A stretch of DNA of 22,707 bases from Candidatus Eiseniibacteriota bacterium (lineage in GTDB: Bacteria > ARS69): assembly GCA_052390515.1 (NCBI GenBank), contig JBQTGV010000043.1:1-22707 (forward strand), read 5' to 3'. The notes under the pieces were generated by a model. It made no database searches and had not been told where the DNA came from. It saw nothing but the letters and a program-made list of their open reading frames with translations. This document shows positions 897 to 20,690 of the stretch, in pieces. The position numbers were made by a program, and so were the translations under genes. How positions within the stretch are numbered: position 1 is the stretch's first letter; each line of letters opens with the position of its first letter.

Positions 897-3800
897 GTGA
901 ACGACCATCCCCCCGAGCAGGACGATCCGTCGCGCTACGGACCGAATGCCTGGCTGATCGAAGAGAAGTACCGCCAGTTCCGGGAGTTCCCGGACTCCGT
1001 GGGCGAGCCCTGGCGGCACTTCCTCGAGGGATTCCCGGCCGCTCCCGGCGAGCCGGCGAACGGCCCGACGCGTCCGCCCTCCGCGACGGCGGCCCCCGTC
1101 CCGGCCGAAGCACCCGCGCCGTCGAGGCTGGCTCAGCCGACCGCCGCCCCGCGCCCCGCGCTCCCTGATGATTCGCTCCAGCCCATCCGTGGCGCCGGGC
1201 TCCGCATCGTGGAGAACATGGAGCGAAGCCTCGCCGTGCCGACCGCCACCTCGGTCCGCGACATCCCGGTCCGCCTGCTGGAGGAGAACCGGCGCGTCGT
1301 GAACCAGATGCTCGGCGAGTCCACCGGGCGGAAGCTGAGCTTCGGCCACGTCATCGCCTGGGCCTTGCTCCGCGCGCTTCGCTCCGTGCCGGCGATGACG
1401 TCGTCCTACCGGGAGATCGACGGCGTCCCGCACCGCGTCGTGCCCGCGCGTGTGAACCTCGGCCTCGCGGTGGACATGGAGCGCAAGGACGGCTCGCGCG
1501 CCCTGCTGGTGCCCAACGTGAAGGGCGCGGATGCGCTCGACTTCTCGGCGTTCGTGGACGCGTACGACGAGGCGGTCCGCCGCGTCCGGGAGAACCGAGC
1601 CGTCCCCGACGACTTCGCCGGCACGACGCTCACGCTGACGAATCCCGGGACGATCGGCACGGTGCACTCGATTCCGCGGCTGATGGAGGGCCAGGGCCTC
1701 ATCGTCGGCACCGGCGCGATCGACTACCCGGCCGAGTTCCGATCCTCCGATCCCCGCACGATCGCTTCGCTCGGGATCGGCAAGGTGATGACCGTCACCA
1801 GCACCTACGACCACCGCGTCATCCAGGGCGCGGAGAGCGGAGCGTTCCTCGCCGCACTCGACCGGCTGCTCAACGGCGGCGGCGGCTTCTACGAGGAGAT
1901 CTTCGCCGCGCTGCACGTGCCCCACCACCCGCTGGTGCCCAGGCCGGACTCGAACCCCTTCGTCGACCCCGGCGCGTCCGGGCTCGTCGAGAAGGAGGCG
2001 AAGGTCCTCGCGCTGATCAACATGTATCGCGTGCGCGGACACCTGCTGGCCAACCTGAATCCGCTCGCGACCGGAGTGCGCTCGCACCCGGAGCTGGATC
2101 CGGAGTCGTACGGGCTGACCGTGTGGGACTACGACCGCGAGTTCATCACCGGAGGGCTCGGCGGCAGGGACCGCATGACGCTCCGCGAGATCCTCGAGGT
2201 CCTTCGCGGCTCGTACTGCCAGACGATCGGGATCGAGTACCGGCACATCCAGGAGCCGGAGCCGAAGCGCTGGATCCAGGAGAGGGTCGAGCGCAGCGCG
2301 CGGGAGCAGTGGACCGACCGGAAAGCGAAGCGACGCATCCTCGACCGGCTCGCGGCCGCGGACTCGTTCGAGAAGTTCCTGCACACGAAGTACGTCGGGC
2401 ACAAGCGCTTCAGCCTGGAAGGCGCGGAGACGCTGATCCCCATGCTGGACGCGCTGCTGACCCGCGCCGTCTCCATGGGAATCGGCGAGGCGGTCCTGGG
2501 TATGGCGCATCGCGGGCGGCTCAACGTGCTCGGCAACATCCTGGGCAAGAGCCTCGAACGGTTGTTCCGCGAGTTCGAGGGCAACCTCGATCCGGAGAGC
2601 CTGGACGGCTCCGGCGACGTGAAGTACCACCTGGGCGCGACCGGAACGCACTCCGCGCCGGACGGCGGCACGCTGCTGCTCACGCTCGCGTCGAATCCCA
2701 GCCACCTCGAGGCGGTCGATCCGGTCGTCGAGGGCATGGCCCGCGCCAAGCAGGACCTGGCCGGCGACACCGAGCGCGGCTCGGTCCTCCCCGTGCTCAT
2801 CCACGGCGACGCCGCGTTCGCCGGACAGGGCGTCGTCGCGGAGACGCTGAACCTCTCCGACCTCAAGGGTTACCGCACCGGCGGCACCGTGCACCTCGTC
2901 GTGAACAACGGAATCGGGTTCACCACTTCGCCGGTGGACGCGCGCTCCACGGTCTATCCGACGGACGTCGCGCGGATGATCCAGGCGCCGATCTTCCACG
3001 TGAACGGCAACGATCCGGAAGCGTGCGTGCGCGTGATCGAGCTGGCGCTCGAGTACCGGCAGGAGTTCGCGAAGGACGTGGTCGTCGACATGCTCTGCTA
3101 CCGGAAGCACGGCCACAACGAGAGCGATGAGCCGTCCTTCACCCAGCCCATCATGTACCGCGCGATCGCGCGGATGCGGCCGGTTCGCCTGCTCTACGAG
3201 GAGTCGCTGGTGCGCCGCGGCGAGATCACCGCCACCGAGGCCGAGGAGGCCCAGCGCGACTTCCACGCGCGGCTCGAGGCTGCATTCGCCGCGACGCACG
3301 ACAGCGCTCCGCCGACGCCGATCCTGCCCAAGGACGCGGCGAAGGACGACGCGCAGCCTTCGATGCCGACGGGAGTGGAGCGGGGCCGCCTCGCGCAGGT
3401 GCTGGAGTCCGTGTCGGCGTGGCCGGCGGGGTTCCACGTGCACCCCAAGCTCGCCAGGCAGCTCGAGGCCCGCCGCGCGATGATCGATCAGGACTCCGTC
3501 GACTGGGCCGCGGCCGAGGCGCTGGCCTTCGGAACTCTGCTGCTCGATGGCCGCGACGTCCGTCTCTCCGGGCAGGACTCGCGGCGGGGAACGTTCAGCC
3601 AGCGCCACGCCGTGCTCATCGATCAGGAGACCGGCGCCGAACACGTGCCGCTCGCCGGTCTGGCCGAGGGGCAGGGCCGCTTCGCCGCGCACGACAGCCT
3701 GCTCAGCGAGTTCGCGGTGATGGGCTTCGAGTACGGCTACTCGGTGAGCGCGCCCGAGACGCTCGTGCTCTGGGAGGCGCAGTTCGGGGACTTCGTCAAC

Positions 3801-4526
3801 GGGGCGCAGATCATCGTGGACCAGTTCCTGGCCTCGTCGTACGAGAAGTGGAAGCAGTCCTCGGGCCTCGTGCTGCTCCTCCCCCACGGCTTCGAGGGAC
3901 AGGGACCGGAGCACTCCAGCGCGCGTCTCGAGCGGTTCCTCACGCTGTGTGCCCTCGAGAACATGCGCGTCGCGGTGCCCACGACCGCGGCGCAGTACTT
4001 CCACCTCCTGCGCCGCCAGGCCCACCAGCGTCCCTCGAAGCCGCTCGTGGTGATGACCCCGAAGAGCCTGCTGCGCGCGCCGTCGGCCAAGAGCCGCGCC
4101 GCCGAGTTCGTCGACGGGAGGTTCGAGCTCGTGCTGGACGATCCGGCTGTGCAGCACGTCGAGGCGGTGACGCGGTTGCTCTTGTGCTCGGGGAAGGTCG
4201 CGTACGACCTGATGGCGTTCCGGGCGAAGCACGACGTGCGCGGCACGGCCGTCATCCGCTTCGAGCAGCTCTATCCGTTCCCGGCCGACGACCTCGCCGC
4301 CGTGCTCGGCCGCTACCCCGAGGCGAAGGAGATCCGCTGGGTCCAGGAAGAGCCCATGAACATGGGCGCGTGGAGCTACATGCAGGCCCGCCTGCGCACG
4401 CGGCTCCCCGCCGATCGCCGCCTCTCGTTCGCCGGCCGCCCGCCGTCGGGCTCCCCGGCCACCGGAAGCCAGAGCATGCACGCGGTCGAGCAGGAGTACC
4501 TCGTGCAGCAGGCATTCTACGCATAG
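897..4526 (+). CDS. kgd: Multifunctional 2-oxoglutarate dehydrogenase/decarboxylase (E2 succinyltransferase catalytic domain fused to ThDP-dependent E1; Kgd/OdhA type)
   Basis: 1209 aa. N-terminal GPNAWLIEEKY...P.SV...W helix and Pro/Ala linker; E2 catalytic motif TYDHRVIQGAESG; E1 motifs YRVRGHLLANLNPL, KRFSLEG, GMAHRGRLN, GDVKYHLG, NPSHLEA, ThDP-binding HGDAAFAGQG...NN, WEAQFGDF, PHGFEGQGPEHSS. No lipoyl domain is visible. Confidence 0.95.
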   Translation: MNDHPPEQDDPSRYGPNAWLIEEKYRQFREFPDSVGEPWRHFLEGFPAAPGEPANGPTRPPSATAAPVPAEAPAPSRLAQPTAAPRPALPDDSLQPIRGAGLRIVENMERSLAVPTATSVRDIPVRLLEENRRVVNQMLGESTGRKLSFGHVIAWALLRALRSVPAMTSSYREIDGVPHRVVPARVNLGLAVDMERKDGSRALLVPNVKGADALDFSAFVDAYDEAVRRVRENRAVPDDFAGTTLTLTNPGTIGTVHSIPRLMEGQGLIVGTGAIDYPAEFRSSDPRTIASLGIGKVMTVTSTYDHRVIQGAESGAFLAALDRLLNGGGGFYEEIFAALHVPHHPLVPRPDSNPFVDPGASGLVEKEAKVLALINMYRVRGHLLANLNPLATGVRSHPELDPESYGLTVWDYDREFITGGLGGRDRMTLREILEVLRGSYCQTIGIEYRHIQEPEPKRWIQERVERSAREQWTDRKAKRRILDRLAAADSFEKFLHTKYVGHKRFSLEGAETLIPMLDALLTRAVSMGIGEAVLGMAHRGRLNVLGNILGKSLERLFREFEGNLDPESLDGSGDVKYHLGATGTHSAPDGGTLLLTLASNPSHLEAVDPVVEGMARAKQDLAGDTERGSVLPVLIHGDAAFAGQGVVAETLNLSDLKGYRTGGTVHLVVNNGIGFTTSPVDARSTVYPTDVARMIQAPIFHVNGNDPEACVRVIELALEYRQEFAKDVVVDMLCYRKHGHNESDEPSFTQPIMYRAIARMRPVRLLYEESLVRRGEITATEAEEAQRDFHARLEAAFAATHDSAPPTPILPKDAAKDDAQPSMPTGVERGRLAQVLESVSAWPAGFHVHPKLARQLEARRAMIDQDSVDWAAAEALAFGTLLLDGRDVRLSGQDSRRGTFSQRHAVLIDQETGAEHVPLAGLAEGQGRFAAHDSLLSEFAVMGFEYGYSVSAPETLVLWEAQFGDFVNGAQIIVDQFLASSYEKWKQSSGLVLLLPHGFEGQGPEHSSARLERFLTLCALENMRVAVPTTAAQYFHLLRRQAHQRPSKPLVVMTPKSLLRAPSAKSRAAEFVDGRFELVLDDPAVQHVEAVTRLLLCSGKVAYDLMAFRAKHDVRGTAVIRFEQLYPFPADDLAAVLGRYPEAKEIRWVQEEPMNMGAWSYMQARLRTRLPADRRLSFAGRPPSGSPATGSQSMHAVEQEYLVQQAFYA

Positions 4527-4566: not shown

Positions 4567-5880
4567 ATGAATCGAGCAAGCAGACACGCCGCCGCCGCGC
4601 TGGTCACCGGCTTCGGCACGTCCCTCGCCATGTGGGTGCTGGGCTTCGCGCTGCGCATGCCGCCGGCCGCGACGCCGGGCTGGCTCGTGCTGGCGCTGCT
4701 TCTCGTGGTGCTGGCTGCCGGCGGCGCGTTCGCCGGGGGGGGAACCGGCGCCGGCGCGCGGGCCGGGGCGGCCGCGGGGCTCGTCGCCTCACTGGTGAAC
4801 CTGCTGGTGCTGGGGAGCCTGCTGGGCGGCGAGGAGCCGAACCGCCTCGTTCCCGTCGCGGCGCTGTGGATCCCCGGTTCGCTCGTCTGCGGGGCCGCCT
4901 GCGGCGCGCTCGGCGCGCTCGCCGTGGGCCGCGGACCCGCGCCGGCAGTCCCGCCCGACTGGACGGCGGTCTTCGCGCGGATCGGCGCGCTGGCCACGCT
5001 CGCGCTGGTGATGCTCGGGGGGCTGGTGACGAGCCACGAAGCCGGACTGGCCGTCGTCGACTGGCCGAACTCGTACGGCTACAACATGTTCCTGTATCCG
5101 CTCTCACGTATGGTCGGAGGGATCTGGTACGAGCACGCCCACCGCCTGTTCGGATCCCTCGTCGGCCTCACCACCCTCGCCCTCTTCTTCCGCCTGCTCG
5201 CTTGCGAGCCGCGCCGCTCGGTGAAGGCGTGGGGCGCCGCCGCCGTCGTGCTCGTCATCGCCCAGGGGATCCTCGGCGGGCTGCGCGTCACCGGACACTT
5301 CACCACCGCGGCCACGCCGGATGCGGTCCGCCCCAGCCTCGCGCTGGCCATGGTTCACGGCGTCGCCGGACAGCTCTTCTTCGCCTGGATGGTGTGCCTC
5401 GCCGCGCTGACCTCGCGCACGTGGAAGGAGCGGACCGGAGCGGTGGTGACCGACGCCGCCGGCACCGACCGCACCGTCTCCTGGATCGTGATCGGCGCAC
5501 TGCTCATCCAGCTCCTGCTCGGCGTGCGCGTTCGCCACACCGGCGAGGGCGTCATGCTGCACATCACCTTCGCGGTCGTCGTGCTGGCCGTCATCGTGCT
5601 GGCCGGAGTGCGCACGCTCGGCAACTACTCGGGGGTGGTCGCCCTGCGCAAGTCCGCGGGGGCGCTGCTCGGCCACGGGGTCACGCAGCTCGTGCTCGGC
5701 GGCTTCGCCTTCTTCCTCGTGAATCTCCGCTCGGGCGAGGGGACGCCGCCGGCGAGCGAGGTGTGGGTGACGACGCTGCACCAGACCGTCGGCGCGTTGC
5801 TGCTGGGCAACGCGGCCATCCTCGCCGCGTGGTCCCGCCGGCTGCTCACGACCGGGGACGCCGGGGCGGCAGCATCGTGA
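4567..5880 (+). CDS. ctaA: Heme A synthase (COX15/CtaA family) with N-terminal membrane extension
   Basis: 437 aa. Motifs LGGLVTSHEAGLAVVDWP, WYEHAHRLFG, QGILGGLRV, MVHG, MLHITFA and TLHQTVG supply the four His of heme A synthases. The first ~130 aa are an extra hydrophobic region. Confidence 0.88.
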   Translation: MNRASRHAAAALVTGFGTSLAMWVLGFALRMPPAATPGWLVLALLLVVLAAGGAFAGGGTGAGARAGAAAGLVASLVNLLVLGSLLGGEEPNRLVPVAALWIPGSLVCGAACGALGALAVGRGPAPAVPPDWTAVFARIGALATLALVMLGGLVTSHEAGLAVVDWPNSYGYNMFLYPLSRMVGGIWYEHAHRLFGSLVGLTTLALFFRLLACEPRRSVKAWGAAAVVLVIAQGILGGLRVTGHFTTAATPDAVRPSLALAMVHGVAGQLFFAWMVCLAALTSRTWKERTGAVVTDAAGTDRTVSWIVIGALLIQLLLGVRVRHTGEGVMLHITFAVVVLAVIVLAGVRTLGNYSGVVALRKSAGALLGHGVTQLVLGGFAFFLVNLRSGEGTPPASEVWVTTLHQTVGALLLGNAAILAAWSRRLLTTGDAGAAAS

Positions 5881-6815
5881 GCGGCGCGGTCGTCTGCGAC
5901 CAGGTCGGACACAGCTACGGCACGCGCGTGGCGCTCGATGCGGTGACGCTGGAGGTTCCGCGGGGAAGCCTGTTCGCGCTGCTGGGACCGAACGGCGGCG
6001 GGAAGAGCACGCTCTTCCGCATCCTGGCCACGCTGTTCCGGCCGACGCGCGGCCGCGCGACGGGTCTGGGTCACGACGTGGCGAATCAGGCGAGCGGCGT
6101 GCGCCGCGCGATCGGCGTGGCTTTCCAGGCTCCCGCGCTCGACAAGAAGCTCACCGTCCGCGAGAACCTGACGCACCAGGGCCACCTGTACGGACTCCGG
6201 GGCCGGCGCCTCGCCGCCCGGATCGACGAGCTGCTGGCGCTGTTCCGGCTGGGCGAACGCGCCCGGGACCGCGTCGAGACGCTCTCCGGCGGTCTCGCCC
6301 GGCGCGTGGATCTGGCCAAGGCGCTGCTGCACGCGCCGCCGGTGCTGCTGTTGGACGAGCCGTCCACCGGACTCGACCCGGGCGCGCGGCGCGAGCTGCT
6401 GGAGACGCTGACGTCGCTGCGGGATGGCGGCACCACCGTGCTGCTGACCACCCATCTGACCGACGAGGCCGCCCGCGCGAGCCACGTGGCCATCCTGGAC
6501 CGGGGGAAGCTCGTCGTCCTGGGCGCGCCGGACTCGCTCGTGGCCGAGATCGGCGGAGACGTCGTGACGCTCGACTCCGAGGACGCGCCCGGCCTCGCGC
6601 GGGAGATCGGTGCGCGCTGGGGCACGCGGGCGACGACCGAAGGCGGCGTGGTTCGCCTCGAGCACGCGCGCGCCGCGGATCTGCTGCCGGAGCTGCTGCA
6701 GACTTTCGGAGACCGGGTGCGCTCGGCGAAGGTTTCGCACCCGACGCTCGAGGACGTGTTCTTCCACCGGACCGGCAGGACGTTCTCGCCGGACGGGACC
6801 GACCGCGATGCGTGA
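5877..6815 (+). CDS. ABC transporter ATP-binding protein (DrrA/NodI-like, ABC-2 exporter family)
   Basis: GTG 5877 overlaps the ctaA stop (GTGA); 312 aa. Walker A GPNGGGKST, signature LSGGLARR, Walker B LLLDEP, H-loop LTTH, and a C-terminal PTLEDVF motif typical of DrrA-like ATPases. The track ORF 4530..6815 is over-extended at its 5' end. Confidence 0.92.
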   Translation: MSGAVVCDQVGHSYGTRVALDAVTLEVPRGSLFALLGPNGGGKSTLFRILATLFRPTRGRATGLGHDVANQASGVRRAIGVAFQAPALDKKLTVRENLTHQGHLYGLRGRRLAARIDELLALFRLGERARDRVETLSGGLARRVDLAKALLHAPPVLLLDEPSTGLDPGARRELLETLTSLRDGGTTVLLTTHLTDEAARASHVAILDRGKLVVLGAPDSLVAEIGGDVVTLDSEDAPGLAREIGARWGTRATTEGGVVRLEHARAADLLPELLQTFGDRVRSAKVSHPTLEDVFFHRTGRTFSPDGTDRDA

Positions 6816-7617
6816 CCCCTTGTGGCTGCCGGCGGCCTCCCTGTGGCGGCGCGAGATGGTGCGGTTCTTCCGCCAGCCGAGCCGCATCATCGGCTCGCTG
6901 GGCACGCCCTTCCTCTTCTGGCTGTTGCTCGCCTCCGGACTCGGGCCGTCGTTCCGGCCGATGTCGACGGACGCGGGCTCCTTCGTCTACTTCCTTCCGG
7001 GGGCGCTGGTCCTGGTGCTGCTCTTCACCTCCATCTTCGCGAACATCTCCGTGATCGAGGACCGCCGCGAGGGCTTCCTTCAGAGCGTGCTCGTGGCGCC
7101 GGTTCCGCGCATCGCCGTCGTGGCAGGCAAGGTGCTGGGCGCCGCCACCATCGCCGTGCTCCAGGGAGCCGCGCTCGTCGCCGCGGCGGCGGCCGGGGGC
7201 GTGGACGTCTCCGGCGCCGACCCGGGCGGGACGCTGCTCGCCGTGGTCGTGCTGGCGGTGGGGATCTCCGCGTTCGGGTTCTGCTTCGCCTGGCAGCTCG
7301 AGTCGATTCAGGGCTTCCACGGGGTGATGAACCTGCTGCTCATGCCCATGTGGGTCCTCTCCGGCGCGCTCTTTCCCCTGGACGGCCTCCCGCGGATTCT
7401 CCAGGCGCTCGTGCGCCTGAACCCGGTCACGTATGGACTGGCCTGGATCCGCCACTCCTTCGGGGAGAGCGGGACGGACCTGCCCGCCCGGGATCCGGCG
7501 GCGCTCGTCTCGATCGCCTTCGCCGCGGCGGCTCTGGCCGCCGCCGCCTTCGTGGCAGGGCGCGCTCCCGGCGACGGGATTCTCCGCCGCTTCGTCCGGA
7601 CGCGCGGGGGCTCGTGA
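6808..7617 (+). CDS. ABC-2 type transporter permease
   Basis: ATG 6808 overlaps the end of the ATPase gene; 269 aa with about 6 hydrophobic segments. Motifs WRREMVRFFRQPSR, DRREGFLQSVLVAPV...GK, LSGALFP and NPVTY are characteristic of ABC-2 permeases. Confidence 0.9.
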   Translation: MRDPLWLPAASLWRREMVRFFRQPSRIIGSLGTPFLFWLLLASGLGPSFRPMSTDAGSFVYFLPGALVLVLLFTSIFANISVIEDRREGFLQSVLVAPVPRIAVVAGKVLGAATIAVLQGAALVAAAAAGGVDVSGADPGGTLLAVVVLAVGISAFGFCFAWQLESIQGFHGVMNLLLMPMWVLSGALFPLDGLPRILQALVRLNPVTYGLAWIRHSFGESGTDLPARDPAALVSIAFAAAALAAAAFVAGRAPGDGILRRFVRTRGGS

Positions 7618-7772: not shown

Positions 7773-8441
7773 GTGTCGGAAACCAAGAAATCGGATCGAA
7801 AGCCCGCATTTCCATCCTGGCTCGACAGTGCGATCAAGGCCGGCGGGATTCTCGCGGGGTTCGGCGCGCTGTACGTGGTCGCGCTCCTTTATTACGGGAT
7901 CCATCCGCAGGCGATGGACATCGGCTACCAGCCGGAGCAGCCCGTGCCGTATAGCCATGCGCTGCACGCCGGCCAACTCGGGATCGACTGCCGCTACTGC
8001 CACAACACGGTCGACCGCTCGCCCTTCGCCTCCATCCCGCCCACCCAGACCTGCATGAACTGCCATACGGCGATCCGGCCGGAGAGCGAGAAGCTGGTCC
8101 CGGTGCGGGAGAGCCACGCGACCGGGATGCCGGTGGAGTGGGTGCGGGTCCACGACCTGCCGGACTTCGTCTACTTCAATCACAGCGCGCACGTGAACCG
8201 TGGCGTGGGCTGCGTGGAGTGCCACGGCCGGGTAGACAAGATGGAGGTGGTCTACTGGGCGAAGCCGCTCTCCATGGCCTGGTGCCTGTCGTGCCACCGG
8301 AACCCGGATGATCGCCTTCGCCCGCTGGACCAGATCACCAACATGAGCTGGGAGCGCCCGGACGACCCGAACTACGGGGCGCAGCTGCGCAAGGCGCTCG
8401 ACGTGAACCCTTCGCAGGATTGCTCGACATGCCACCGGTAG
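7773..8441 (+). CDS. actA: Alternative complex III subunit ActA, pentaheme cytochrome c
   Basis: 222 aa with one N-terminal TM helix, the PEQPVPYSHALHAG motif, five CxxCH motifs (CRYCH, CMNCH, CVECH, CLSCH, CSTCH) and LPDFVYFNHSAH. Confidence 0.93.
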   Translation: MSETKKSDRKPAFPSWLDSAIKAGGILAGFGALYVVALLYYGIHPQAMDIGYQPEQPVPYSHALHAGQLGIDCRYCHNTVDRSPFASIPPTQTCMNCHTAIRPESEKLVPVRESHATGMPVEWVRVHDLPDFVYFNHSAHVNRGVGCVECHGRVDKMEVVYWAKPLSMAWCLSCHRNPDDRLRPLDQITNMSWERPDDPNYGAQLRKALDVNPSQDCSTCHR

Positions 8442-11400
8442 ACGACGACAAGCACGGATACTGGCAGAGCCTCGCCGAGCACGACTCGACGCCGGAGTTT
8501 CGTGAGGCTTCGGAGCGCGAGTTCCTGGAGCTGCTCCCGGAGGAGTTCAGCGCGGGATCGCGGCGACGGTTCCTGCAGCTCATGGGTGCGTCCGTGGCGC
8601 TCGCCGGTGCGGGGTGCGGTGGGGTGGACCCGGACTGGCCGAAGTACCGCACCGCCAAGATCTTGCCGCTGGCGTTCCGCGCGCCCGGGGTCGATCCCGG
8701 GAAGCCGTTCTGGTTCGCCACGTCGATGGAGCTTTCCGGTGTCGCCAAGCCGGTGCTGGCCAAGAGCTACGACGGCCGCCCGATCAAGATCGAGGGCAAC
8801 CCGGAGCACCCCGCATCGCTGGGCGCGGCCGACCTGCTCGCCCAGGCCAGCGTGCTGGAGCTGTACGATCCGGCGCGCAGCCAGGCGCCGTGCCGCTTCG
8901 ACGGCGGCCGAGTCACCGAGGCGACGTGGGAAGTGCTCGCCTCGGAGATGCACCCGGTCGTCGACGCAGCGCGCGCCCGGCGCGGGCAGGGCCTCGCCAT
9001 CCTGAGCGAGGCGACCAGCTCCCCGTCGTTCGCCGCGCTGCGCGCCCGGCTCTCCGAGACGTACCCGGCGGCAGCCTGGTACGAGTGGGAGCCGCTCACC
9101 CGCGACGCGGCCCGGGAGGGCGCGCGGCTCGTGTTCGGCCAGCCGCTGCGCACGCACCTGCACATCGCAGACGCCGACGTAGTCGTCAGCCTGGACGACG
9201 ACTTCCTGTTCGCGCACCCGCAGGCCGTGGCGCACGCCCGTGCATTCGTGGCGCGCCGGCGGGCCGAAGACGGCACGATGAGCCGGCTCTACGTGCTGGA
9301 GAGCGCGTACTCGATCACCGGAAGCCAGGCCGACGACCGTCGCGCGGTGCCGCCCGGCGCCCTTCCGCAGGTCGCGTGGGCGCTCGCCGCGCATCTCTTC
9401 CTGGAGTCCGGAGTGGCGCTGCCGCCCGAGCTCGGCCACCTGCAGCCGCTCCTGACCGGCGCGCGCGCGCACGGCGAGCACTGGCCGTTCGTCGCGCGGA
9501 TCGCCGGCGAGCTCGCCGAGAAGCGCGGCCATGGTCTGGTGACCTGCGGACCGACGCAGCCGGCCGGCGTGCACGCGCTCGTGCACTTGATGAACGCGGC
9601 GCTCGGCAACGCCGGGCACACGGTCACGTACACGGCGGAGCCGGCGGCGGATCGCGCCACGCACGCCGGGTCCATTTCGGCGCTCGCCGCGGAGCTCCAG
9701 GCCGGCCGCGTCGATGCGCTCATCCTGCTGGGTGGGAACCCGGTCTTCGACGCGCCCGCCGACCTCGGCTTCGAGGCGTCGATGCGCAAGGCCGGCGTAC
9801 AGCTGCACCTCTCCCTGCATCGCAACGAGACGAGCCTCGCCTCCACCTGGCACGCGCCGCGGGCGCACTACCTCGAGGCCTGGTCGGACGCGCTCTCCTG
9901 GGACGGGACTTACACGCTCGCGCAGCCGCTGATCCAGCCCCTGTTCGGCGGCCTGACGCCGGCCGAGCTGCTGAGCCTTCTGCTGGAGGACCGTGCCGCG
10001 GACGGGCTCGCGCTCGTGCGCGCAGGCTTCGCCGCGGCGGTCGGTGGCGGCGACGCGGAGTGGACCCGCGCCGTGCACGACGGGTTCGTGGCCGGCTCCG
10101 CGCCGGCGGCGGTGCTGCCGGACCTCGCCCCCGCCGCTTGGAAGCCGGCGACCTCGGACTTCGAGTGGCATGCGCCTTCCGGCTCGACGGTGGAGGTCGC
10201 GCTGCGCGGCTCGGCCACGATCCACGACGGTCGCTTCGCGAACCACCCGTGGCTGATGGAACTCCCCGACCCGATGACGAAGCTCACCTGGGACAACGCC
10301 GCGCTGCTGAGTCCGCTGACCGCGCGCGCTCTCGGCCTCTCCCACGGCGACGTCGTACGGCTCTCCAAGGGCGAGCGCTCGCTCGAGCTGCCCGTGTACC
10401 TCATGCCCGGCCAAGCACGGGGGTCCGTGACGGTCGCTCTGGGCTGGGGTCGGAGGGCCGGAGGCGCGGTCGCCGTGCCGCAGAAGCGGCGCCGCGAAGG
10501 CGGCGGCTTCGACGCCTACGTGCTGCGCACCTCGCAAGCGCTGTGGACCGTGCCCGGCGTCGAGATCGCCGCGACCGGGGGCAGATACCCGCTCTCCGGC
10601 ACGCAGGATCACCACGCGATCTTCAACCCGGAGCAGGGCCGCGGCCAGGCCCGCCGGCTCCACCAGCTCTACCGCGAAGCGACGCTGTCCGAGTACCGCG
10701 AGCATCCCGACTTCGCGAAGCACGTGGTGCACCATCCGCCGCTCGTCTCGCTCTGGAAGGAGCACGACTACAGCACCGGGCACCGCTGGGGCATGACCAT
10801 CGATCTGGCCGCCTGCATCGGCTGCGGAGCCTGCGTCGTGGCCTGCCAGGCGGAGAACAACTCGCCGACGGTGGGCAAGGCGGAGGTGGCCCGCGGCCGC
10901 GAGATGCACTGGATCCGCGTGGACCGCTACTTCCACGGCGATCCCGATCAGCCGAGGGCGATGCACCAGCCGGTTCCCTGCCAGCAGTGCGAGAACGCGC
11001 CGTGCGAGCAGGTCTGCCCCGTGGCGGCCACCGTGCACAGCCACGAGGGCTTGAACGACATGGTCTACAACCGCTGCGTGGGCACCCGGTACTGCTCGAA
11101 CAACTGCCCGTACAAGGTGCGGCGCTTCAACTGGTTCAACAACAGCGACCGCAAGTACAACCGGCCGGACCTCTTCAAGATGCAGCGCAATCCGGACGTG
11201 ACCGTCCGCGCGCGCGGCGTCATGGAGAAGTGCACGTACTGCATCCAGCGCATCAAGGCCGTGACCATCCCGGCGAAGAACGAGCGGCGGGCCGTGCGCG
11301 ACGGCGAGATCGTGCCGGCCTGCGCGCAGACCTGCCCGACGCAGGCCATCGTGTTCGGGGATCTGAACGACACCGGGAGCCGCGTCCGCCGGAACCAGGA

Positions 11401-11554
11401 TGACGCGCGCGCCTACGCCATGCTCGGCGAGCTCAACGTAAAGCCGAGAACGCTGTATCTGGCGAAGGTGCGCAACCCGTCGTCCGGCGAGCGTTCGGAA
11501 GCTCCCGGCCACCACGCGGGCGTTCCCTCGGCCGAGCCAGGGGGCCGCGCCTAG
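8429..11554 (+). CDS. actB: Alternative complex III subunit ActB (Tat-exported molybdopterin-oxidoreductase-like domain plus Fe-S domain)
   Basis: Probable ATG 8429 overlapping actA; 1041 aa. YWQSL leader, Tat motif SRRRFLQLMGAS followed by lipobox-like ALAGAGC, GRPIKIEGNPEHP. C-terminal Fe-S motifs CIGCGACVVAC, CQQCENAPCEQVCP, CVGTRYCSNNCP (one Cys missing, as expected for the [3Fe-4S] site) and CTYC...ACAQTCP. Confidence 0.94.
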   Translation: MPPVDDDKHGYWQSLAEHDSTPEFREASEREFLELLPEEFSAGSRRRFLQLMGASVALAGAGCGGVDPDWPKYRTAKILPLAFRAPGVDPGKPFWFATSMELSGVAKPVLAKSYDGRPIKIEGNPEHPASLGAADLLAQASVLELYDPARSQAPCRFDGGRVTEATWEVLASEMHPVVDAARARRGQGLAILSEATSSPSFAALRARLSETYPAAAWYEWEPLTRDAAREGARLVFGQPLRTHLHIADADVVVSLDDDFLFAHPQAVAHARAFVARRRAEDGTMSRLYVLESAYSITGSQADDRRAVPPGALPQVAWALAAHLFLESGVALPPELGHLQPLLTGARAHGEHWPFVARIAGELAEKRGHGLVTCGPTQPAGVHALVHLMNAALGNAGHTVTYTAEPAADRATHAGSISALAAELQAGRVDALILLGGNPVFDAPADLGFEASMRKAGVQLHLSLHRNETSLASTWHAPRAHYLEAWSDALSWDGTYTLAQPLIQPLFGGLTPAELLSLLLEDRAADGLALVRAGFAAAVGGGDAEWTRAVHDGFVAGSAPAAVLPDLAPAAWKPATSDFEWHAPSGSTVEVALRGSATIHDGRFANHPWLMELPDPMTKLTWDNAALLSPLTARALGLSHGDVVRLSKGERSLELPVYLMPGQARGSVTVALGWGRRAGGAVAVPQKRRREGGGFDAYVLRTSQALWTVPGVEIAATGGRYPLSGTQDHHAIFNPEQGRGQARRLHQLYREATLSEYREHPDFAKHVVHHPPLVSLWKEHDYSTGHRWGMTIDLAACIGCGACVVACQAENNSPTVGKAEVARGREMHWIRVDRYFHGDPDQPRAMHQPVPCQQCENAPCEQVCPVAATVHSHEGLNDMVYNRCVGTRYCSNNCPYKVRRFNWFNNSDRKYNRPDLFKMQRNPDVTVRARGVMEKCTYCIQRIKAVTIPAKNERRAVRDGEIVPACAQTCPTQAIVFGDLNDTGSRVRRNQDDARAYAMLGELNVKPRTLYLAKVRNPSSGERSEAPGHHAGVPSAEPGGRA

Positions 11555-11557
11555 GTC

Positions 11558-13008
<1,451 letters not shown>

Positions 13009-13012
<4 letters not shown>

Positions 13013-13581
13013 GCGAGCACCACGGAGCGAAGCGCACCGACGGGGCCGGAACGCCGCGGCTCGCCGGGTACCTCGTGGAGTTCGAGACCGCGTCGTCGCT
13101 GCGCGTGGCCTGCGAGAAGGTCCGCGACGCGGGTTTCACGCGCTGGGACGCGCACACGCCGTTCCCGGTGCACGGGCTCGACGTGGCCATGGGCCTCAAG
13201 CCGACCGTGCTGCCCCGGCTCGTGTTCGCCGGCGGCTTCGCCGGAGCGGCCATCGGGCTCGGCCTGCAGTGGTGGGCCAACGCGGAGAACTTCCCGCTGA
13301 TCATCAGCGGCAAGCCCTTCTGGAGCATCCCGGCGAACATCCCGGTCACGTTCGAGCTGACCGTGCTCCTCGCCGCGCTCACCGCCTTCCTGGGGATGCT
13401 GGTGCTCAACGGATTCCCGCGGCTGCACCATCCGGTGTTCACCAGCACTCGCTTCCGCAGGGCGTCGATCGACCGCTTCTTCCTCAGCGTGGAAGCGGCG
13501 GATCCGCACTTCGAAGAGCAGTCCACCCTGGTGCTGCTGCGCGGGCTGGGCGGCACTCATCTCGAGCGGCTGGAGGTCTGA
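13009..13581 (+). CDS. actD: Alternative complex III subunit ActD (DUF3341 family)
   Basis: ATG 13009 overlaps the actC stop (ATGA); 190 aa. Motifs [16 protein letters not shown] and [23 protein letters not shown], two TM helices, DRFFL. The track ORF 11713..13581 is over-extended. Confidence 0.92.
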
Positions 13582-13582
13582 C

Positions 13583-14239
13583 ATGCCGCGCTGGATGATC
13601 CCGACCTTGGTGGTGCTCGCGGCGGCGTCGATCGTTCCCGCGGCGCTCATCGCCCGGGCGCGCGCCACTCACCAGGCCACGCCGCGCATCAACATCATCC
13701 CGGACATGGACTACCAGCCCAAGTACCTGCCGCAGACCGCCAATGCGATGTTCGCCGACGGCCGCGCCGCCCGCGAGTTTCCCAAGGGCACGGTGGCGCG
13801 CGGCGCGCTCCTCGAGGACGAGCACCTGCAGCGCGGCCTCGTCGGGGGCGATTGGGCGACGTCCTTCCCCATGACCGTCACCGACTCGTTGATGAGCCGC
13901 GGCCGGCAGCGTTTCGAGATCTACTGCGCGCCCTGCCACGGGCTCGACGGCGCCGGGCAGGGCCTGGTCGCCAGGCGCGCGGATCAGCTCATGCAGATGG
14001 GGGCCGCGCAGTGGACGCCACCGCTCTCCGTGCACGACGACGTCGTCCGGCAGCGCCCCGTCGGCCACCTGTTCAACACCATCTCCTACGGCATCCGCAC
14101 CATGCCGGCGTACGGACCGCAGATCAGCGTGGCGGACCGCTGGGCCATCGTGGCGTACGTGCGGGCATTGCAGAGGAGCTCCCGGGCGAGCGTCGCCGAC
14201 GTCCCCGCGGAAGACCGTTCCCTGCTGGCGGGAGGCTGA
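13583..14239 (+). CDS. actE: Alternative complex III subunit ActE, monoheme cytochrome c
   Basis: 218 aa. DMDYQPK...FADGRA.R..P.GTVARG, RGRQRFEIYCAPCHG (single CxxCH), GIRTMPAYG (axial Met) and DRWAIVAYVRALQ. Confidence 0.92.
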   Translation: MPRWMIPTLVVLAAASIVPAALIARARATHQATPRINIIPDMDYQPKYLPQTANAMFADGRAAREFPKGTVARGALLEDEHLQRGLVGGDWATSFPMTVTDSLMSRGRQRFEIYCAPCHGLDGAGQGLVARRADQLMQMGAAQWTPPLSVHDDVVRQRPVGHLFNTISYGIRTMPAYGPQISVADRWAIVAYVRALQRSSRASVADVPAEDRSLLAGG

Positions 14240-14240
14240 G

Positions 14241-15467
14241 ATGACGAGCGCTCGCAAGGTCCCGGATCTCTCGGCCGTTCGCCTGTCCCTGGATGGGGCG
14301 GCCGGGCGCATCGCCGGCGCGGGCTTCGGTGTCGGCGCGGTCGGGCTCCTCGCCTCCGGCGCGCTCGCGGCCGGCGGCAGCGCAGCCTGGAGCCGCGCCG
14401 TCCAGGCCTGGCTGGTGAACTGGGTCTTCTTCCTGTCGCTGACCCTCGGCGCGCTCTTCTTCGTGCTGCTGCAGCACGTCGCCAAGGCCGGCTGGAGCGT
14501 CGTCGTTCGAAGACTCGCGGAGGGCTTCGCCGCGAACTTCGCGCTGCTCGCCGTGCTGTCGATCCCGGTCCTCGCGGGGCTGCCCCACGTGTTCGAGTGG
14601 GCGCGGCCCGAGATCGTCGAGCACGATCATCTCTTGCAGGCCAAGCGCGCGTACCTGAACCCCGCTCTGTTCGTGGCCCGCATGGCCGCCTACTTCGTGG
14701 TCTGGATCGCGCTCTCCGAGTGGATGTTCTGGAGCTCGGTGAAGCAGGACGAGAGCGGCGATCCCTCGATCACCGGCCGACTGCAGACGATGTCCGGACC
14801 GGCGATCTACCTCTTCGCCCTGACCACGACCTTCGCCTCGTTCGACCTGCTCATGTCCCTGGAGCCGCGCTGGTTTAGCACCATCTTCGGGGTGTACTTC
14901 TTCTCGGGTAGCGCGCTCTCGTGCTTCGCCCTCCTGCCGCTGGTCGCGTTCCTGCTGCAGCGGAGCGGCAGGCTGGTCGGGATCGTCTCCGTCGAGCACT
15001 ATCACGACATGGGCAAGCTGATGTTCGCGTTCGTCGTCTTCTGGTCGTACATCGCGTTCTCGCAGTACATGCTGATCTGGTACGCGAACATCCCGGAGGA
15101 GACGACGTGGTTCCTGGCGCGGCTGACCGGTTCGTGGACCGGCTTCAGCTGGTTCATCCTGCTCGGGCACTTCCTGGCGCCGTTCCTGTTCCTGATCTCC
15201 CGGATCCCGAAGCGGCATCCCTCGGTCCTGGTGGTCGGCTCGCTCTGGCTCCTGCTCGCGCACTGGGCGGACCTGTACTGGATCGCGATGCCGTCGATCG
15301 GGGACGGGACGTCGGGCAAGGTGCCGTTCCACCTGCTGGATCTGACCACCTTCCTGGCCATCGGCGGGTTCTGGGTCGGGGCCTGGGCGCTGCGCATGCG
15401 GGGACGCTCGCTGCTGGCCCGCCGCGACCCGCGGCTCAGCGAGTCCCTGGCATTCGAGAACTTCTGA
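14241..15467 (+). CDS. actF: Alternative complex III subunit ActF (membrane subunit, ActC paralog)
   Basis: 408 aa, about 10 TM segments. Motifs GWSVVVRRLAE, KRAYLN, FDLLMSLEPRWFSTIFG, HYHDMGKLMFAF and FSQYMLIWYANIPEET. Confidence 0.93.
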   Translation: MTSARKVPDLSAVRLSLDGAAGRIAGAGFGVGAVGLLASGALAAGGSAAWSRAVQAWLVNWVFFLSLTLGALFFVLLQHVAKAGWSVVVRRLAEGFAANFALLAVLSIPVLAGLPHVFEWARPEIVEHDHLLQAKRAYLNPALFVARMAAYFVVWIALSEWMFWSSVKQDESGDPSITGRLQTMSGPAIYLFALTTTFASFDLLMSLEPRWFSTIFGVYFFSGSALSCFALLPLVAFLLQRSGRLVGIVSVEHYHDMGKLMFAFVVFWSYIAFSQYMLIWYANIPEETTWFLARLTGSWTGFSWFILLGHFLAPFLFLISRIPKRHPSVLVVGSLWLLLAHWADLYWIAMPSIGDGTSGKVPFHLLDLTTFLAIGGFWVGAWALRMRGRSLLARRDPRLSESLAFENF

Positions 15468-15468
15468 G

Positions 15469-15783
15469 GTGAGCTCCTTGTCGAAGCACGTCGACGATCC
15501 CATCGCGAGCGCCACGGCCATCGTGGTGGTGGTCTTCTCGCTGGCGGTGGCGATCACCCTGATCGCGCTGCAGGCGTACTACGGGCGCGCCACCGCGCGG
15601 GAGCTGGAGGTCAAGTTGCTGCGGCCCACGCCGGAAGAGCGCGCCCTGGTGGAGGCCGCGCAGCGCGAGAGCCTGGCGGGCTACCGCTGGGTGGATCGGG
15701 ACGCCGGTGTCGTCACCATTCCGATCGACCGCGCCATGCATCTCGTCGTCGAGGAGCTCGCCGGCGGCGGAGATTCACGATGA
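15469..15783 (+). CDS. actG: Small single-TM protein, probable ACIII subunit ActG
   Basis: 104 aa, GTG one nt after the actF stop, one TM helix, and C-terminal L.GYRWVDRDAGVVTIPIDRAM motif typical of the small gene between actF and SCO. Its stop overlaps the SCO start (ATGA). Confidence 0.75.
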   Translation: MSSLSKHVDDPIASATAIVVVVFSLAVAITLIALQAYYGRATARELEVKLLRPTPEERALVEAAQRESLAGYRWVDRDAGVVTIPIDRAMHLVVEELAGGGDSR

Positions 15784-16610
15784 GACCGCGCGGCTGGCTC
15801 GGGCCGGTGGCGTGGATCCTGGCGGTTGCGCCGGCCGCAGCGCAGCTCGTCGAGGACGTCCCCGACGAGCTCGTCGGCGTGGGCATCACCGAGCACCTCG
15901 ACCAGCCGCTTCCGCTCGACCTCACCTTCCGTGACGAGGCCGGCGAGACCGTGTCCCTCGGCAAGTACTTCGAGCCGGGCAAGCCGGTCGTTCTGAACCT
16001 CGTCTATTTCAGCTGCCCGATGCTCTGCAACGTCTTCCTGGACGGCTTCACCGAGAGCCTCGGCGACCTGGAATGGACTCCGGGGAACGAGTTCGAGATC
16101 GTCACGGTGAGCATCGACCCCGAGGACGGACCGGAGGGTGCGGCGGCGAAGCGCACGCATTACGTCGAGAAGCTCGGTCGGCCCGAGGCGGCTGCCGGCT
16201 GGCATTTCCTCACCGGCAGCGACACCGACATCCACCGGCTGGCCGACGCCATCGGGTTCGGGTACCGCTTCGACGAGAACTCCGGCGAGTACATGCACTC
16301 CGCCGGGATCTTCCTGGCCACGCCCGAGGGCAGGCTCTCGAGGTATCTCTACGGCGTCATCTTCGACGAGCAGACGCTTCGCCTCTCCCTGGTCGAGGCC
16401 TCCGACGGCAGGATCGGCACGGCGATGGATCAGGTGCTGCTCTTCTGCTTCGCCTATGATCACACCGAGGGTCGTTACGGCCCCGCGGCCATGAACCTCA
16501 TGCGGGGCTTCGCCGCTCTCACCTTGCTGGTCCTGGCCGTCTTCCTCGCGGCGCAGTGGAGGCGGGACGCGGCTCGACGGCACGCGGTCACGCTGGGAGC
16601 GCGATCGTGA
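15780..16610 (+). CDS. SCO1/SenC-family copper chaperone for cytochrome c oxidase CuA assembly
   Basis: 276 aa with a signal peptide, CxxxC (YFSCPMLC), VTVSIDP, WHFLTG, conserved His (YMHSAG), G.LSRYLYG and a C-terminal TM helix after FCFAYD...GRYG. Confidence 0.92.
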   Translation: MRPRGWLGPVAWILAVAPAAAQLVEDVPDELVGVGITEHLDQPLPLDLTFRDEAGETVSLGKYFEPGKPVVLNLVYFSCPMLCNVFLDGFTESLGDLEWTPGNEFEIVTVSIDPEDGPEGAAAKRTHYVEKLGRPEAAAGWHFLTGSDTDIHRLADAIGFGYRFDENSGEYMHSAGIFLATPEGRLSRYLYGVIFDEQTLRLSLVEASDGRIGTAMDQVLLFCFAYDHTEGRYGPAAMNLMRGFAALTLLVLAVFLAAQWRRDAARRHAVTLGARS

Positions 16611-17599
16611 TCGGACTCTTCCGCGGGATGCACGGAGCGGACGCCCTGCTCGCCGCCGGCGAACGCACGTTCTGGCTGCCGGAGGGCCGGTCCACGTTCG
16701 CTTCGGACATCGACAGTCTCTTCTATCTCATCTACTGGGTCTGCGTGTTCTTCTTCCTGCTGATCCTGGGGATGGCCGTCTGGTTCCTCGTGAAGTATCG
16801 GCGCCGCGGCGAGGAGGTGGTCGTCCAGAAGAGCGCACACCACAACACCTTCCTCGAGCTCATCTGGAGCGGCATCCCGCTGCTCATCTCCCTCGCGATC
16901 TTCGTGCTGGGGTTCCGCGGATACATGGACCTGGTGACGCCGCCCGAGAACGCGTACCAGATCCAGGTCGACGCCCAGAAGTGGAGCTGGTCGTTCACCT
17001 ACCCCAACGGGTACGTCGACAGCGAGCTGCACGTGCCGGCGGGCAAGCCGGTCCGCTTGATCATGTCGTCCCAGGACGTCCTGCACAGCTTCTTCGTTCC
17101 GGAGCTGCGCACCAAGAACGACGTGATCCCGGGGCGCTACACGACCGTGTGGTTCAACGCGGACCGCCCCTTCGAGGGTACCGTGTTCTGCACCGAGTAC
17201 TGCGGCACGAACCACTCGCAGATGCAGTCCCTGTTCGTGGCGCACGATCCCGCCGAGTTCCAGAAGTGGCTGGATAACGCCAGCCGCTGGTGGGAAGGCA
17301 TGGAACCGGCCGAGGCTGGCGCCCTGCTCTACCAGAAGCGCGGCTGCGCGCAGTGCCACTCCGTGGACGGCTCGGGCGGCATCGGGCCGACGTTCCAGGG
17401 ATCGTTCGGCAACCGCCGGCAGTTCGCCGACGGCCAGACCGCCGACATGGACGAGAACTACATCCGCCAGTCGGTCCTCGAGCCTCGGGCGAGAATCGTG
17501 GCGGGGTTCGATCCGGTGATGCCCACGTTCCAGGGCCGTCTCAAGGACGAGGAGATCGCCGTACTGATCGCGTACATCAAGAGCCTGAGCGGCAGCTGA
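16607..17599 (+). CDS. coxB: Cytochrome c oxidase subunit II with fused C-terminal cytochrome c (caa3 type)
   Basis: Probable GTG 16607 overlapping the SCO stop (alternative ATG 16628). Two TM helices, KWSWSFTY, CuA ligands DVLHSF...[12 protein letters not shown], then a heme c motif CAQCH...VMP. Confidence 0.95.
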
Positions 17600-17613
17600 C
17601 ACGGAGGTTCCGC

Positions 17614-19311
<1,698 letters not shown>

Positions 19312-19321
19312 AGGAGCCTCG

Positions 19322-20143
19322 ATGAACGAGAGCGCATCCCACGCGGAGCTGCCTCCGCACCGCTGGCACCACTTCGAGAGCGCCGAGCAGCAGTTCGACT
19401 CGGGCAAGCTCGGGATGTGGCTCTTCCTGGCCACCGAAGTGCTCATGTTCGGCGGCCTGTTCTGCGCCTACACCATCTATCGGGGAACACACCCGGACAT
19501 CTTCCACTTCGGGCACCAGTTCCTGGACAAGAAGTGGGGCGGGATCAACACGATCGTTCTGATCTGCAGCAGCCTGACCATGGCCTGGGGAGTGCGGGCG
19601 GCCCAGCTCGGCCAGAAGAAGCTGCTGGTCACCATGCTCTCGCTCACGCTGGCCTGCGCCGGCGGGTTCATGGCCATCAAGTACGTGGAGTACAAGGCGA
19701 AGATCGAGCACGGGCTGCTGTGGGGCAAGAACTACCACCCGGAGGTGCACGGCGAGCACGACGCGGCCGGGACGCACGGCGACGCACCCGCCACGCCGGT
19801 CACGGGGGAGCGACGCTCCTGGAGCACGGAGACGACGGAGTCCTCGACCATAGCACCCGGAGCGTCCGCGCCGCGCGGCCTGGCCACCGGGCGCCCGGCC
19901 CCCGCCGAGCACCAGTCGGAGAGCCCGCCCAACGCGCACATCTTCTTCGGCATCTACTTCGCGATGACCGGACTGCACGGCATCCACGTCCTCGCGGGGA
20001 TGATCGTGATCACCTGGCTCATCGTGGTCGCCGGGCGCTTCGGGCCGGCCTACTTCACGCCCGTGGACCTGGTGGGCTTGTACTGGCACATCGTCGACCT
20101 GATCTGGATCTTCCTCTTCCCGCTGCTCTACCTGATCGACTAG
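19322..20143 (+). CDS. ctaE: Cytochrome c oxidase subunit III (short form with long loop insertion)
   Basis: AAGGAG precedes ATG 19322; 273 aa. Motifs [40 protein letters not shown] and [20 protein letters not shown]. Confidence 0.93.
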
Positions 20144-20153
20144 GGGACGCCGA

Positions 20154-20642
20154 ATGAGCTCGTCGCATTCTCACGGGGAAGCAGGGCACGAACACGGCAG
20201 CGTCGGGCACATCGTGCCGCTGCGCATCCTCTTCGGCACGTGGGCGGCACTCATCGTGCTCACCGTGGTCACCGTGGGGTCGACGTACATCGACCTCGGC
20301 GACCTCAACATCGTCATCGCGCTGCTCATCGCCGTGGTCAAGTCGGCCTTTGTGGTACTGTTCTTCATGCACCTGAAGTACGACAAGCCGTTCCACGCGA
20401 TCGTCTTCGTCAGCGCGACGCTGTTCGTGATGCTGTTCATCAGCTTGGCGCTCATGGACAGCAAGGAGTACCTGCCGAGCAAGATCCCCGGCTACGCCTC
20501 CGAGCTCGCTCCGATCGGCGAACCGGCCGCCGCGGAGACGGCCCCGGCGGCCACCGAAGGCGCGGCCCCCGCCGACGGGGCAGCCCATCCGGCCGAGGGC
20601 GAAGCTCCCGCCGCCGGCACGGAAGCGCCTGCCGGGCACTGA
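20154..20642 (+). CDS. Cytochrome c oxidase subunit IV family protein (CtaF/CyoD-like) with Ala/Pro/Glu tail
   Basis: 162 aa with three TM helices and IAVVKSAFVVLFFMHLKYD, a His-rich N-terminus and a low-complexity C-terminus. Confidence 0.88.
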   Translation: MSSSHSHGEAGHEHGSVGHIVPLRILFGTWAALIVLTVVTVGSTYIDLGDLNIVIALLIAVVKSAFVVLFFMHLKYDKPFHAIVFVSATLFVMLFISLALMDSKEYLPSKIPGYASELAPIGEPAAAETAPAATEGAAPADGAAHPAEGEAPAAGTEAPAGH

Positions 20643-20690
20643 CCGGCGCCGGTCTCCCGTCGCCCGGGGCCGCCGGAGGTCGGAATTCGG

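Follow-up and report, generated by a model that had tools for sequence, protein, structure and literature searches.

In cytochrome c maturation system I, CcmAB(C) joins an ATP-binding cassette (ABC) pair to a heme-binding membrane protein. NosDFY is an ABC complex that delivers copper in the metal-cofactor assembly of nitrous oxide reductase, and HrtBA limits heme B toxicity by export. We analyzed an ABC pair encoded next to ctaA, the heme A synthase gene, in a 22,707-nucleotide stretch of DNA from Candidatus Eiseniibacteriota bacterium (assembly GCA_052390515.1, contig JBQTGV010000043.1, positions 1 to 22,707, forward strand), hereafter the window. The pair, an ATPase and an ABC-2 permease, represents an ABC-2 family of its own that is widespread and linked to genes for the biogenesis of heme A oxidase. 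In that process it is a genuine module, conserved but accessory. We hold a role in heme-copper oxidase biogenesis to be very probable. The more specific proposal, that the pair is an accessory prenyl-heme translocase, has in our estimate a probability of about 0.5; its cargo, direction and partners are predicted only.

The ctaA gene (4567..5880, plus strand; ATG at 4567, TGA at 5880) overlaps the ATPase gene (5877..6815, plus strand; GTG at 5877) by 4 bp (GTGA, 5877-5880), and the ATPase gene overlaps the permease gene (6808..7617, plus strand) by 8 bp (ATGCGTGA, start ATG 6808). An earlier note on this DNA, here called the original prediction, had described these overlapping genes upstream of an alternative complex III and caa3 oxidase operon, with ctaB at the far end, and all of its coordinates were confirmed. 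The ATPase (PF00005, 106 bits) falls in an oxidase-biogenesis clade of the ATPase tree and has complete motifs: Walker A GPNGGGKST, the Q-loop, the LSGG signature, Walker B LLLDEP and the H-loop TTH. The permease is assigned to the type V ABC-2 transporters by a PF01061 score above the cut-off (92.9 vs 26.9 bits), by its fold matches and by the intact cognate ATPase, and its place in the family by trees, residues and model. Its AlphaFold model had a predicted local distance difference test score of 90.8, with H171 at the start of helix 167-187, which we read as transmembrane helix (TM) 5. The best Foldseek matches of the permease were all remote. NosY came first (E 1.6e-4, TM-score ~0.57), and the others were insect ABCH, KpsM, ABCG/H and TarG.

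We compared the pair with described systems. The DrrAB exporters are its nearest relatives, with an ATPase and a six-helix permease in two genes and a sister position in the tree. However, the ATPase scored 247 bits against drrA (TIGR01188, cut-off 312) and the permease 154 bits against drrB (TIGR01247, cut-off 223), below both cut-offs, and the pair has its own clade, marked by W38, W162, H171 and W182, and an oxidase-cluster setting. The permease also scored below the cut-off of TIGR00025 (43 vs 146.9 bits). NosDFY shares the type V fold and gave the best Foldseek match, but identity is ~20%, there is no NosD-like gene and no nosZ context, and the client would be a heme-copper oxidase. CcmAB(C) belongs to the same ABC-2 clan; in contrast to it, the window permease had no PF03379 (CcmB) match at E 0.001, ccmC, ccmE and ccmF do not recur as neighbors, and we predict prenylated heme as the cargo. 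KpsMT, WzmWzt and TarGH share the fold, and in a weak alignment the clade-specific residues map onto the TM1/TM5' canyon for lipid cargo. The family differs from these in having no polysaccharide genes nearby and in His and Trp replacing the Arg-rich canyon. The original prediction had foreseen a multidrug label; drrA and drrB were the best NCBIfam matches, and close homologs, where named by their sources, are called by generic names or 'daunorubicin resistance ABC transporter membrane protein'.

The permease profile matched 863 representative proteins at E up to 1e-30, sister DrrB-like proteins counted in. We analyzed the neighborhoods of the best 80 of 572 confirmed GTDB matches, two of which are the window's own kin. 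These loci span Acidobacteriota, Planctomycetota, Verrucomicrobiota, Nitrospinota, Poribacteria, Elusimicrobiota and Sumerlaeota, further Binatia, NC10 and Bacteroidota/Ignavibacteria, and one record labelled alphaproteobacterial. Neighbors were scanned with profiles from the window genes plus DUF420, and loci that extended 5 kb or more upstream and 2 kb or more downstream were counted as well-flanked. An oxidase or biogenesis gene (cox, ctaA, ctaB, SCO or DUF420) was nearby in 72 of the 80 loci and in 48 of the 50 well-flanked ones; ctaA or ctaB occurred in 36 of the 50. Metagenome loci gave a similar picture, with such genes in 14 of 16 well-flanked loci and 60 of 80 overall. Linkage is kept across more than 10 phylum-level groups. 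Closest homologs in unrelated neighborhoods, the outcome that the original prediction had said would speak against it, were not what the homolog tree and neighborhood scoring returned.

The prevailing gene order was ctaA-ctaB-ATPase-permease-SCO-DUF420. The gene directly upstream of the ATPase was ctaB in 38 cases, cox4 in 6, ctaA in 3 and another gene in 35 (n=82), so the tie to CtaA in particular, as first proposed, is not supported. Directly downstream of the permease we found SCO in 57 cases, DUF420 in 37, cox2 in 9, actA in 2 and other genes in 23 (n=128). DUF420 is CtaM, which is required for aa3/caa3 activity according to the accessible parts of PMC9145763 and PMC8239418. The pair flanks ctaA, with SCO and CtaM not adjoining, in the window's kin and in an actinobacterial record described below; in other lineages it flanks ctaB and ctaA lies elsewhere (e.g. 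L237, L238, L242). NosD-like genes and ccmC, ccmE and ccmF were not among the recurring neighbor families scanned, and no outer-membrane or adaptor gene recurred in the clusters.

Window-type permeases form what we call the His clade, marked by His171 and three Trp residues. The clade was monophyletic with support 100/99 in a careful tree of 45 permeases, 29 of them clade rows. The first permease tree had been a quick one that left out five rows, either duplicates or partial, and used alternate GTDB rows. W38, W162 and H171 were each present in 29/29 clade members and W182 in 28/29, and each was found in 0/16 paralogs. In an alignment from a profile search that used no His motif, H171 occupied 122/130 rows and M174 112/129. 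The His of loci L017-L176 was left out of the evidence because one search pattern contained it and its conservation there is partly by construction. The nearest paralogs, the sister DrrB-like group, lack the His, are unlinked and are present in two ctaB-less genomes; plasmid searches with the permease returned only DrrB-like paralogs at identities of at most 38%. In a weak hidden Markov model alignment of the permease with KpsM (32 bits), N175 coincided with Arg187 and W182 with Tyr194, and H171 fell two positions away from Gln181 (numbered as in the paper, chain numbering minus 3). According to the accessible text of PMC11041684, these KpsM residues line a glycolipid canyon formed by TM1 and TM5 of opposite subunits. 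The clade-specific residues may therefore lie in a cleft for lipid-anchored cargo, as far as so weak an alignment can place them. As a single case, the His-clade permease P0239 is fused to an LptC-like domain.

We next consider co-occurrence with ctaA and ctaB. Three phyla were sampled evenly, the genomes not being chosen for the gene; phylum names were taken from the titles of the centre-locus records, and pooled counts leave out the three centre genomes and G180. In the pooled samples, ctaB was present in 35/35 His-clade carriers, and the clade was found in 0/97 ctaB-less genomes. The profile scores of Planctomycetota (n=101) were bimodal, with 25 scores at 247 bits or more and 12 matches at 142 bits or less. 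The 25 carriers all had ctaB (vs 65/101 overall) and ctaA (vs 61/101), and 22 of 25 clade members lay within 10 kb of ctaB, compared with 0/12 paralogs. The 10 intact carriers among Acidobacteriota all had ctaB, nine of them linked, and one further copy was split in two. Carriers were rare among Verrucomicrobiota (2/61); both had ctaB, and the unlinked one adjoins SCO and DUF420. Among 46 genomes chosen for the clade, ctaB was found in 46 and ctaA in 45. No permease match was found in 19 loci of non-carriers inspected for a hidden, divergent ABC pair beside ctaB. The clade permease at L250:8186-8949 (genome G172) is split over two frames, as a result of decay or of sequencing error, and its ATPase is by ctaB on another contig.

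The two halves of the pair stayed with biogenesis genes where the operon had come apart. After a split, the ATPase often remains by ctaB and the permease by SCO and CtaM. In 19 genomes with the permease away from ctaB, the ATPase was by ctaB in 10 and by the permease in 3; in the other 6 it was not found in the fetched ctaB stretch, which in three ran to a contig edge. G058 has the split on one chromosome. All 7 orphan ATPases tested grouped with the window ATPase in a quick tree (Shimodaira-Hasegawa-like approximate likelihood ratio test 93), and three oxidase-linked ATPases fell outside that group without a settled placement. Permease-SCO or permease-SCO-DUF420 fusions were found in 3 of 19 long homologs (P0142, P0152, P0199), and a fourth lies at L022:9764-11821; the four are 37-49% identical to each other, and some could be lost stop codons. 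Taken together, neighborhood, co-occurrence, fusions and clade-specific residues strongly support the link to heme A oxidase biogenesis that the original prediction had drawn. Other arrangements were seen as well: the ATPase is fused to the permease in P0134, P0143, P0172, P0187, P0204, P0226 and P0263, and P0145 is a tandem double permease. In L026, L042, L060, L076, L077, L080 and L081, inserts of 2-7 kb separate ATPase from permease within clusters that are otherwise intact.

A strong permease match was present in 8 of 12 genomes of the window's phylum. The order ctaA-ATPase-permease-actA was kept in 7/7 relatives, with ctaA overlapping the ATPase gene (-4 or -8 bp) in all seven and the ATPase gene overlapping or abutting the permease gene. 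The contig of G002 ends at ctaA. Since sucA also tightly precedes ctaA, ending 40 bp before it on the same strand, and is upstream of ctaA in most kin loci, spacing alone is weak evidence. The case rests on the cross-phylum data.

CtaB has its active site on the cytoplasmic side of the membrane, and the heme sites of CtaA and Cox1 are nearer the outer side. The metabolite that CtaA and CtaB have in common is heme O, and the pair flanks either gene depending on the lineage. Prenyl-heme translocation is the best reading because of the strict ctaB dependence, the partnering with ctaA or ctaB and the putative His/Trp-lined cleft for lipid cargo. We propose that the proteins would form a (permease)2(ATPase)2 complex in which ATP drives farnesylated heme (heme O, possibly heme A) out of the cytoplasmic leaflet and towards the outer face. 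From the cytoplasmic face the porphyrin would enter the TM1/TM5' cleft, where His171 may serve as an iron ligand and the Trp residues would pack against the ring and the tail. ATP hydrolysis would then pass the heme outward to CtaA or to subunit I. Because many lineages do without the pair, it is probably not essential and would serve to raise efficiency or to keep prenyl-heme from building up.

Several observations weigh against a prenyl-heme translocase. A complex of CtaA and CtaB, presumably tunnelling heme O, has been reported (accessible sections of PMC9145763), and such tunnelling would leave less need for a floppase. The usual neighbor of the pair is ctaB and not ctaA. SCO and CtaM, which are copper-site factors, are the commonest downstream genes and fusion partners, and NosY is the top fold match. 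The cargo is predicted from sequence, context and model, and the KpsM mapping depends on the 32-bit alignment. In the even samples, 107/142 ctaB genomes lacked the clade, making the pair accessory, and the genomes are related, so that the counts overstate independence. The actinobacterial permease beside ctaA has no His motif and is 23% identical to the window permease. Finally, three kin genomes, G001 (100% complete), G011 (96%) and G004 (73%), lack the pair: ctaA precedes actA with no ABC match between them, and no clade member was found genome-wide. All three retain cox1 matches, those of G004 in pieces, which indicates that the pair was lost without loss of the oxidase genes. The act and cox1 genes of G004 (L196) are broken by frameshifts into many pieces, as would be expected of an assembly rich in errors.

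Three stricter roles were rejected. The pair is not obligate for heme A synthesis, because close kin and most ctaB genomes are without it. The idea that it replaces Surf1 is unsupported, Surf1 having been found in 0/80 genomes, carriers and non-carriers alike; as a control, Surf1 was present in C. glutamicum. Obligate partnership with CtaM fails too: DUF420 was not found in four pair-carrying genomes, G000 (the window's own assembly), G003, G005 and G009. Conversely, G001 and six Planctomycetota loci have DUF420 but not the pair. Surf1, caa3-type CtaG, Cox11-CtaG and DUF420 were not found anywhere in the G000 assembly (95% complete), which extends to the genome the earlier remark that the window has no Surf1 or CtaG gene.

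Among the competing explanations, a role at the copper sites survives best. The pair would transport nothing and act as a NosFY-like mechanotransducer, with ATP driving SCO and CtaM in CuA/CuB insertion. We consider this unlikely, and it is nevertheless a real alternative because of the SCO and CtaM neighbors, the four divergent fusions and the NosY fold. CtaM has been proposed to act in CuB assembly (PMC9145763, accessible sections), and His171 and the well-conserved Met174 are possible Cu(I) ligands. However, four kin carry the pair where DUF420 was not found, the fusions may merely reflect gene order, and no NosD-like gene for a periplasmic partner recurs in the clusters. Both ABC genes were present in 38 well-flanked loci; the neighborhood was heme-only in 9 (7 of them from a single lineage, Poribacteria) and SCO/CtaM-only in 3. 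In the structural model His171 appears at the cytoplasmic end of TM5, far from the periplasmic SCO domain.

A second explanation is a prenyl-heme overflow pump that would draw surplus heme O/A or its by-products out of the membrane and expel them against toxicity, in the manner of HrtBA with heme B, and would have no part in delivery. The strict ctaB dependence (35/35; 0/97) together with dispensability would suit such a protective role, and the type V fold is common to lipid and xenobiotic exporters. We think it improbable, since the SCO/CtaM fusions and the placement in assembly operons suit assembly better and the clusters show no recurring outer-membrane or adaptor gene. Still less probable is a CcmAB-like partnership, the analogy drawn in the original prediction, in which the permease would form a complex with CtaA, with ATP hydrolysis driving the release of finished heme A to subunit I. 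The ctaA overlap kept in 8 genomes of the window's family fits this, as does the ABC-2 pair directly before ctaA in the actinobacterial record, but across phyla the direct neighbor is ctaB far more often than ctaA (38 vs 3 of 82), and several lineages keep the pair by ctaB with ctaA elsewhere. An ordinary DrrAB-type multidrug exporter standing in the operon by chance is very improbable and largely refuted: its support, the drrA and drrB top matches and the daunorubicin names of close homologs, is outweighed by the scores under both cut-offs, the linkage across more than 10 phylum-level groups with no carrier lacking ctaB, the retention of both halves with biogenesis genes after operon splits, and the unlinked state of true DrrB-like paralogs.

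A Tsukamurella record (L220:18104-22532) resembles the window in having an ABC-2 pair coupled directly to a COX15/CtaA gene; its order is mptB-ATPase-permease-COX15/CtaA, with ctaB ~3 kb away and a suf cluster alongside. The Tsukamurella CtaA matched our CtaA alignment (A2) with a probability of 98%. This operon differs from the window in its own gene order and in its permease, which lacks the His motif and belongs to TIGR00025 (148 bits vs cut-off 146.9). Orthology with the His clade was neither established nor rejected by the approximately unbiased (AU) test (p=0.184), the actinobacterial branch being very long, and the ATPase grouped weakly with outgroups in a quick tree. The corresponding M. 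tuberculosis locus, Rv1459c-Rv1456c, is described in the accessible part of PMC2440535 as four genes conserved in Corynebacterineae, with Rv1456c taken as a transporter subunit and Rv1456c-Rv1458c proposed as a glycolipid flippase candidate. Rv1456c-Rv1458c have been reviewed as one proposed drug pump (PMC7761784 and PMC8829022, available text), and their disruption led to a growth defect (PMC7761784, available text). The genes rv1457c and rv1458c are given as of function unknown in PMC13279779, and the supplements of PMC8382161 hold no rv1456c-59c rows. Judged by synteny with the Tsukamurella operon, Rv1456c likely encodes a heme A synthase and not the membrane subunit of an ABC transporter. 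If Rv1456c-58c is a heme A synthase operon, as is likely, the growth defect would invite a respiratory reading. We tentatively suggest, as a possibility that falls somewhat short of even odds, a dedicated family of ATP-driven prenyl-heme floppases in more than 10 phylum-level groups, with an actinobacterial counterpart recruited in parallel or long diverged. The actinobacterial 'three-part drug pump' would then be a heme A synthase with its ABC partner.

Within the mostly abstract-level, largely open-access literature covered, no paper gave an ABC-2 transporter a part in the biogenesis of heme A oxidase. A 2022 review (PMC9145763) describes heme transport and heme A insertion as not understood and expects more assembly factors; 'ABC' does not occur in its accessible text. 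The available text of PMC12808453 does not mention a link between the ABC pair and the oxidase. What was available of its supplementary Table 6 has at least 385 K01990 entries, some of whose rows include ctaB, cox genes and an ABC-2 permease, and many other ABC rows there are unrelated polysaccharide loci. The sole trace in PMC4013037 is a symbol labelled 'ABC transporter/permease' in the legend to a figure of COX operons, and the accessible parts of PMC7337898 and PMC5317091 hold nothing further on the pair. The family is thus a concrete candidate for prenylated heme transport to oxidases, with His171 as a diagnostic residue. If this is true, the assembly of heme A oxidase would include a step driven by ATP, in company with CcmAB, which serves c-type hemes, and NosFY, which serves copper. 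The family also corrects the annotation of close homologs, which, where their sources name them, bear generic or daunorubicin-pump labels.

The ctaA product is a heme A synthase by its PF02628 score (53.4 bits, cut-off 29.9), by its four motif histidines (EHAHR, MVHG, MLHI and TLHQ) and by the Glu of E-x-x-H-R; its first loop is Cys-less. H60, H134, H202 and H275 (alignment A2 numbering) were invariant or nearly so in 47 sequences. The roles of these motifs are taken from B. subtilis CtaA. The protein begins with a hydrophobic extension of ~130 aa (window 4567-4956) that belongs to no known family, these 130 residues having no Pfam match and no usable ESM Atlas match. The extension was kept in 10/10 full-length CtaA proteins of the kin, whether the ABC pair was present or absent, and occurs in two Planctomycetota loci, L200 and L219. 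CtaA and CtaB share a single open frame in L072, L079, L203, L204, L206 and L209; L072 and L079 have the pair, and the four Planctomycetota loci are without it.

The remaining genes of the window are as follows. Upstream of ctaA is sucA/kgd (897..4526, plus strand; Pfam E1_dh, Transket_pyr and 2-oxoacid_dh), a fused E2-E1 2-oxoglutarate dehydrogenase of the Kgd type. Downstream, actA begins ~155 bp after the permease gene, and act and cta genes continue to 21323. The alternative complex III genes actA-B-C-D-E and two open reading frames read as actF and actG (7773..15783, plus strand) were assigned by the Pfam c7/c3, Fer4, NrfD, ActD and cytochrome c families, with the putative actF and actG, which have no Pfam match and are kept in the kin, named by position. 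A SCO1/SenC copper chaperone gene (15780..16610, plus strand; PF02630, 41 bits) had gone unmentioned in the original prediction. It is followed by the genes of a caa3-type oxidase (16556..21323, plus strand): cox2 with a cytochrome c domain (PF00116 and PF00034), cox1 (PF00115), cox3 (PF00510), cox4 (PF03626/TIGR02229) and a second cox3-like gene. The ctaB heme O synthase gene lies on the minus strand at 21394..22260 (TIGR01473, 301 bits, cut-off 210); its open frame reaches 22683, and the TIGR01473 match starts near 22255. G000 has a single ctaA, ctaB and cox1 and one strong permease copy. A promoter and terminator scan of the window stretch gave no signal above chance. Between 19298 and 21323, the two cox3-like genes stand on either side of cox4, the second being shorter (210 aa).

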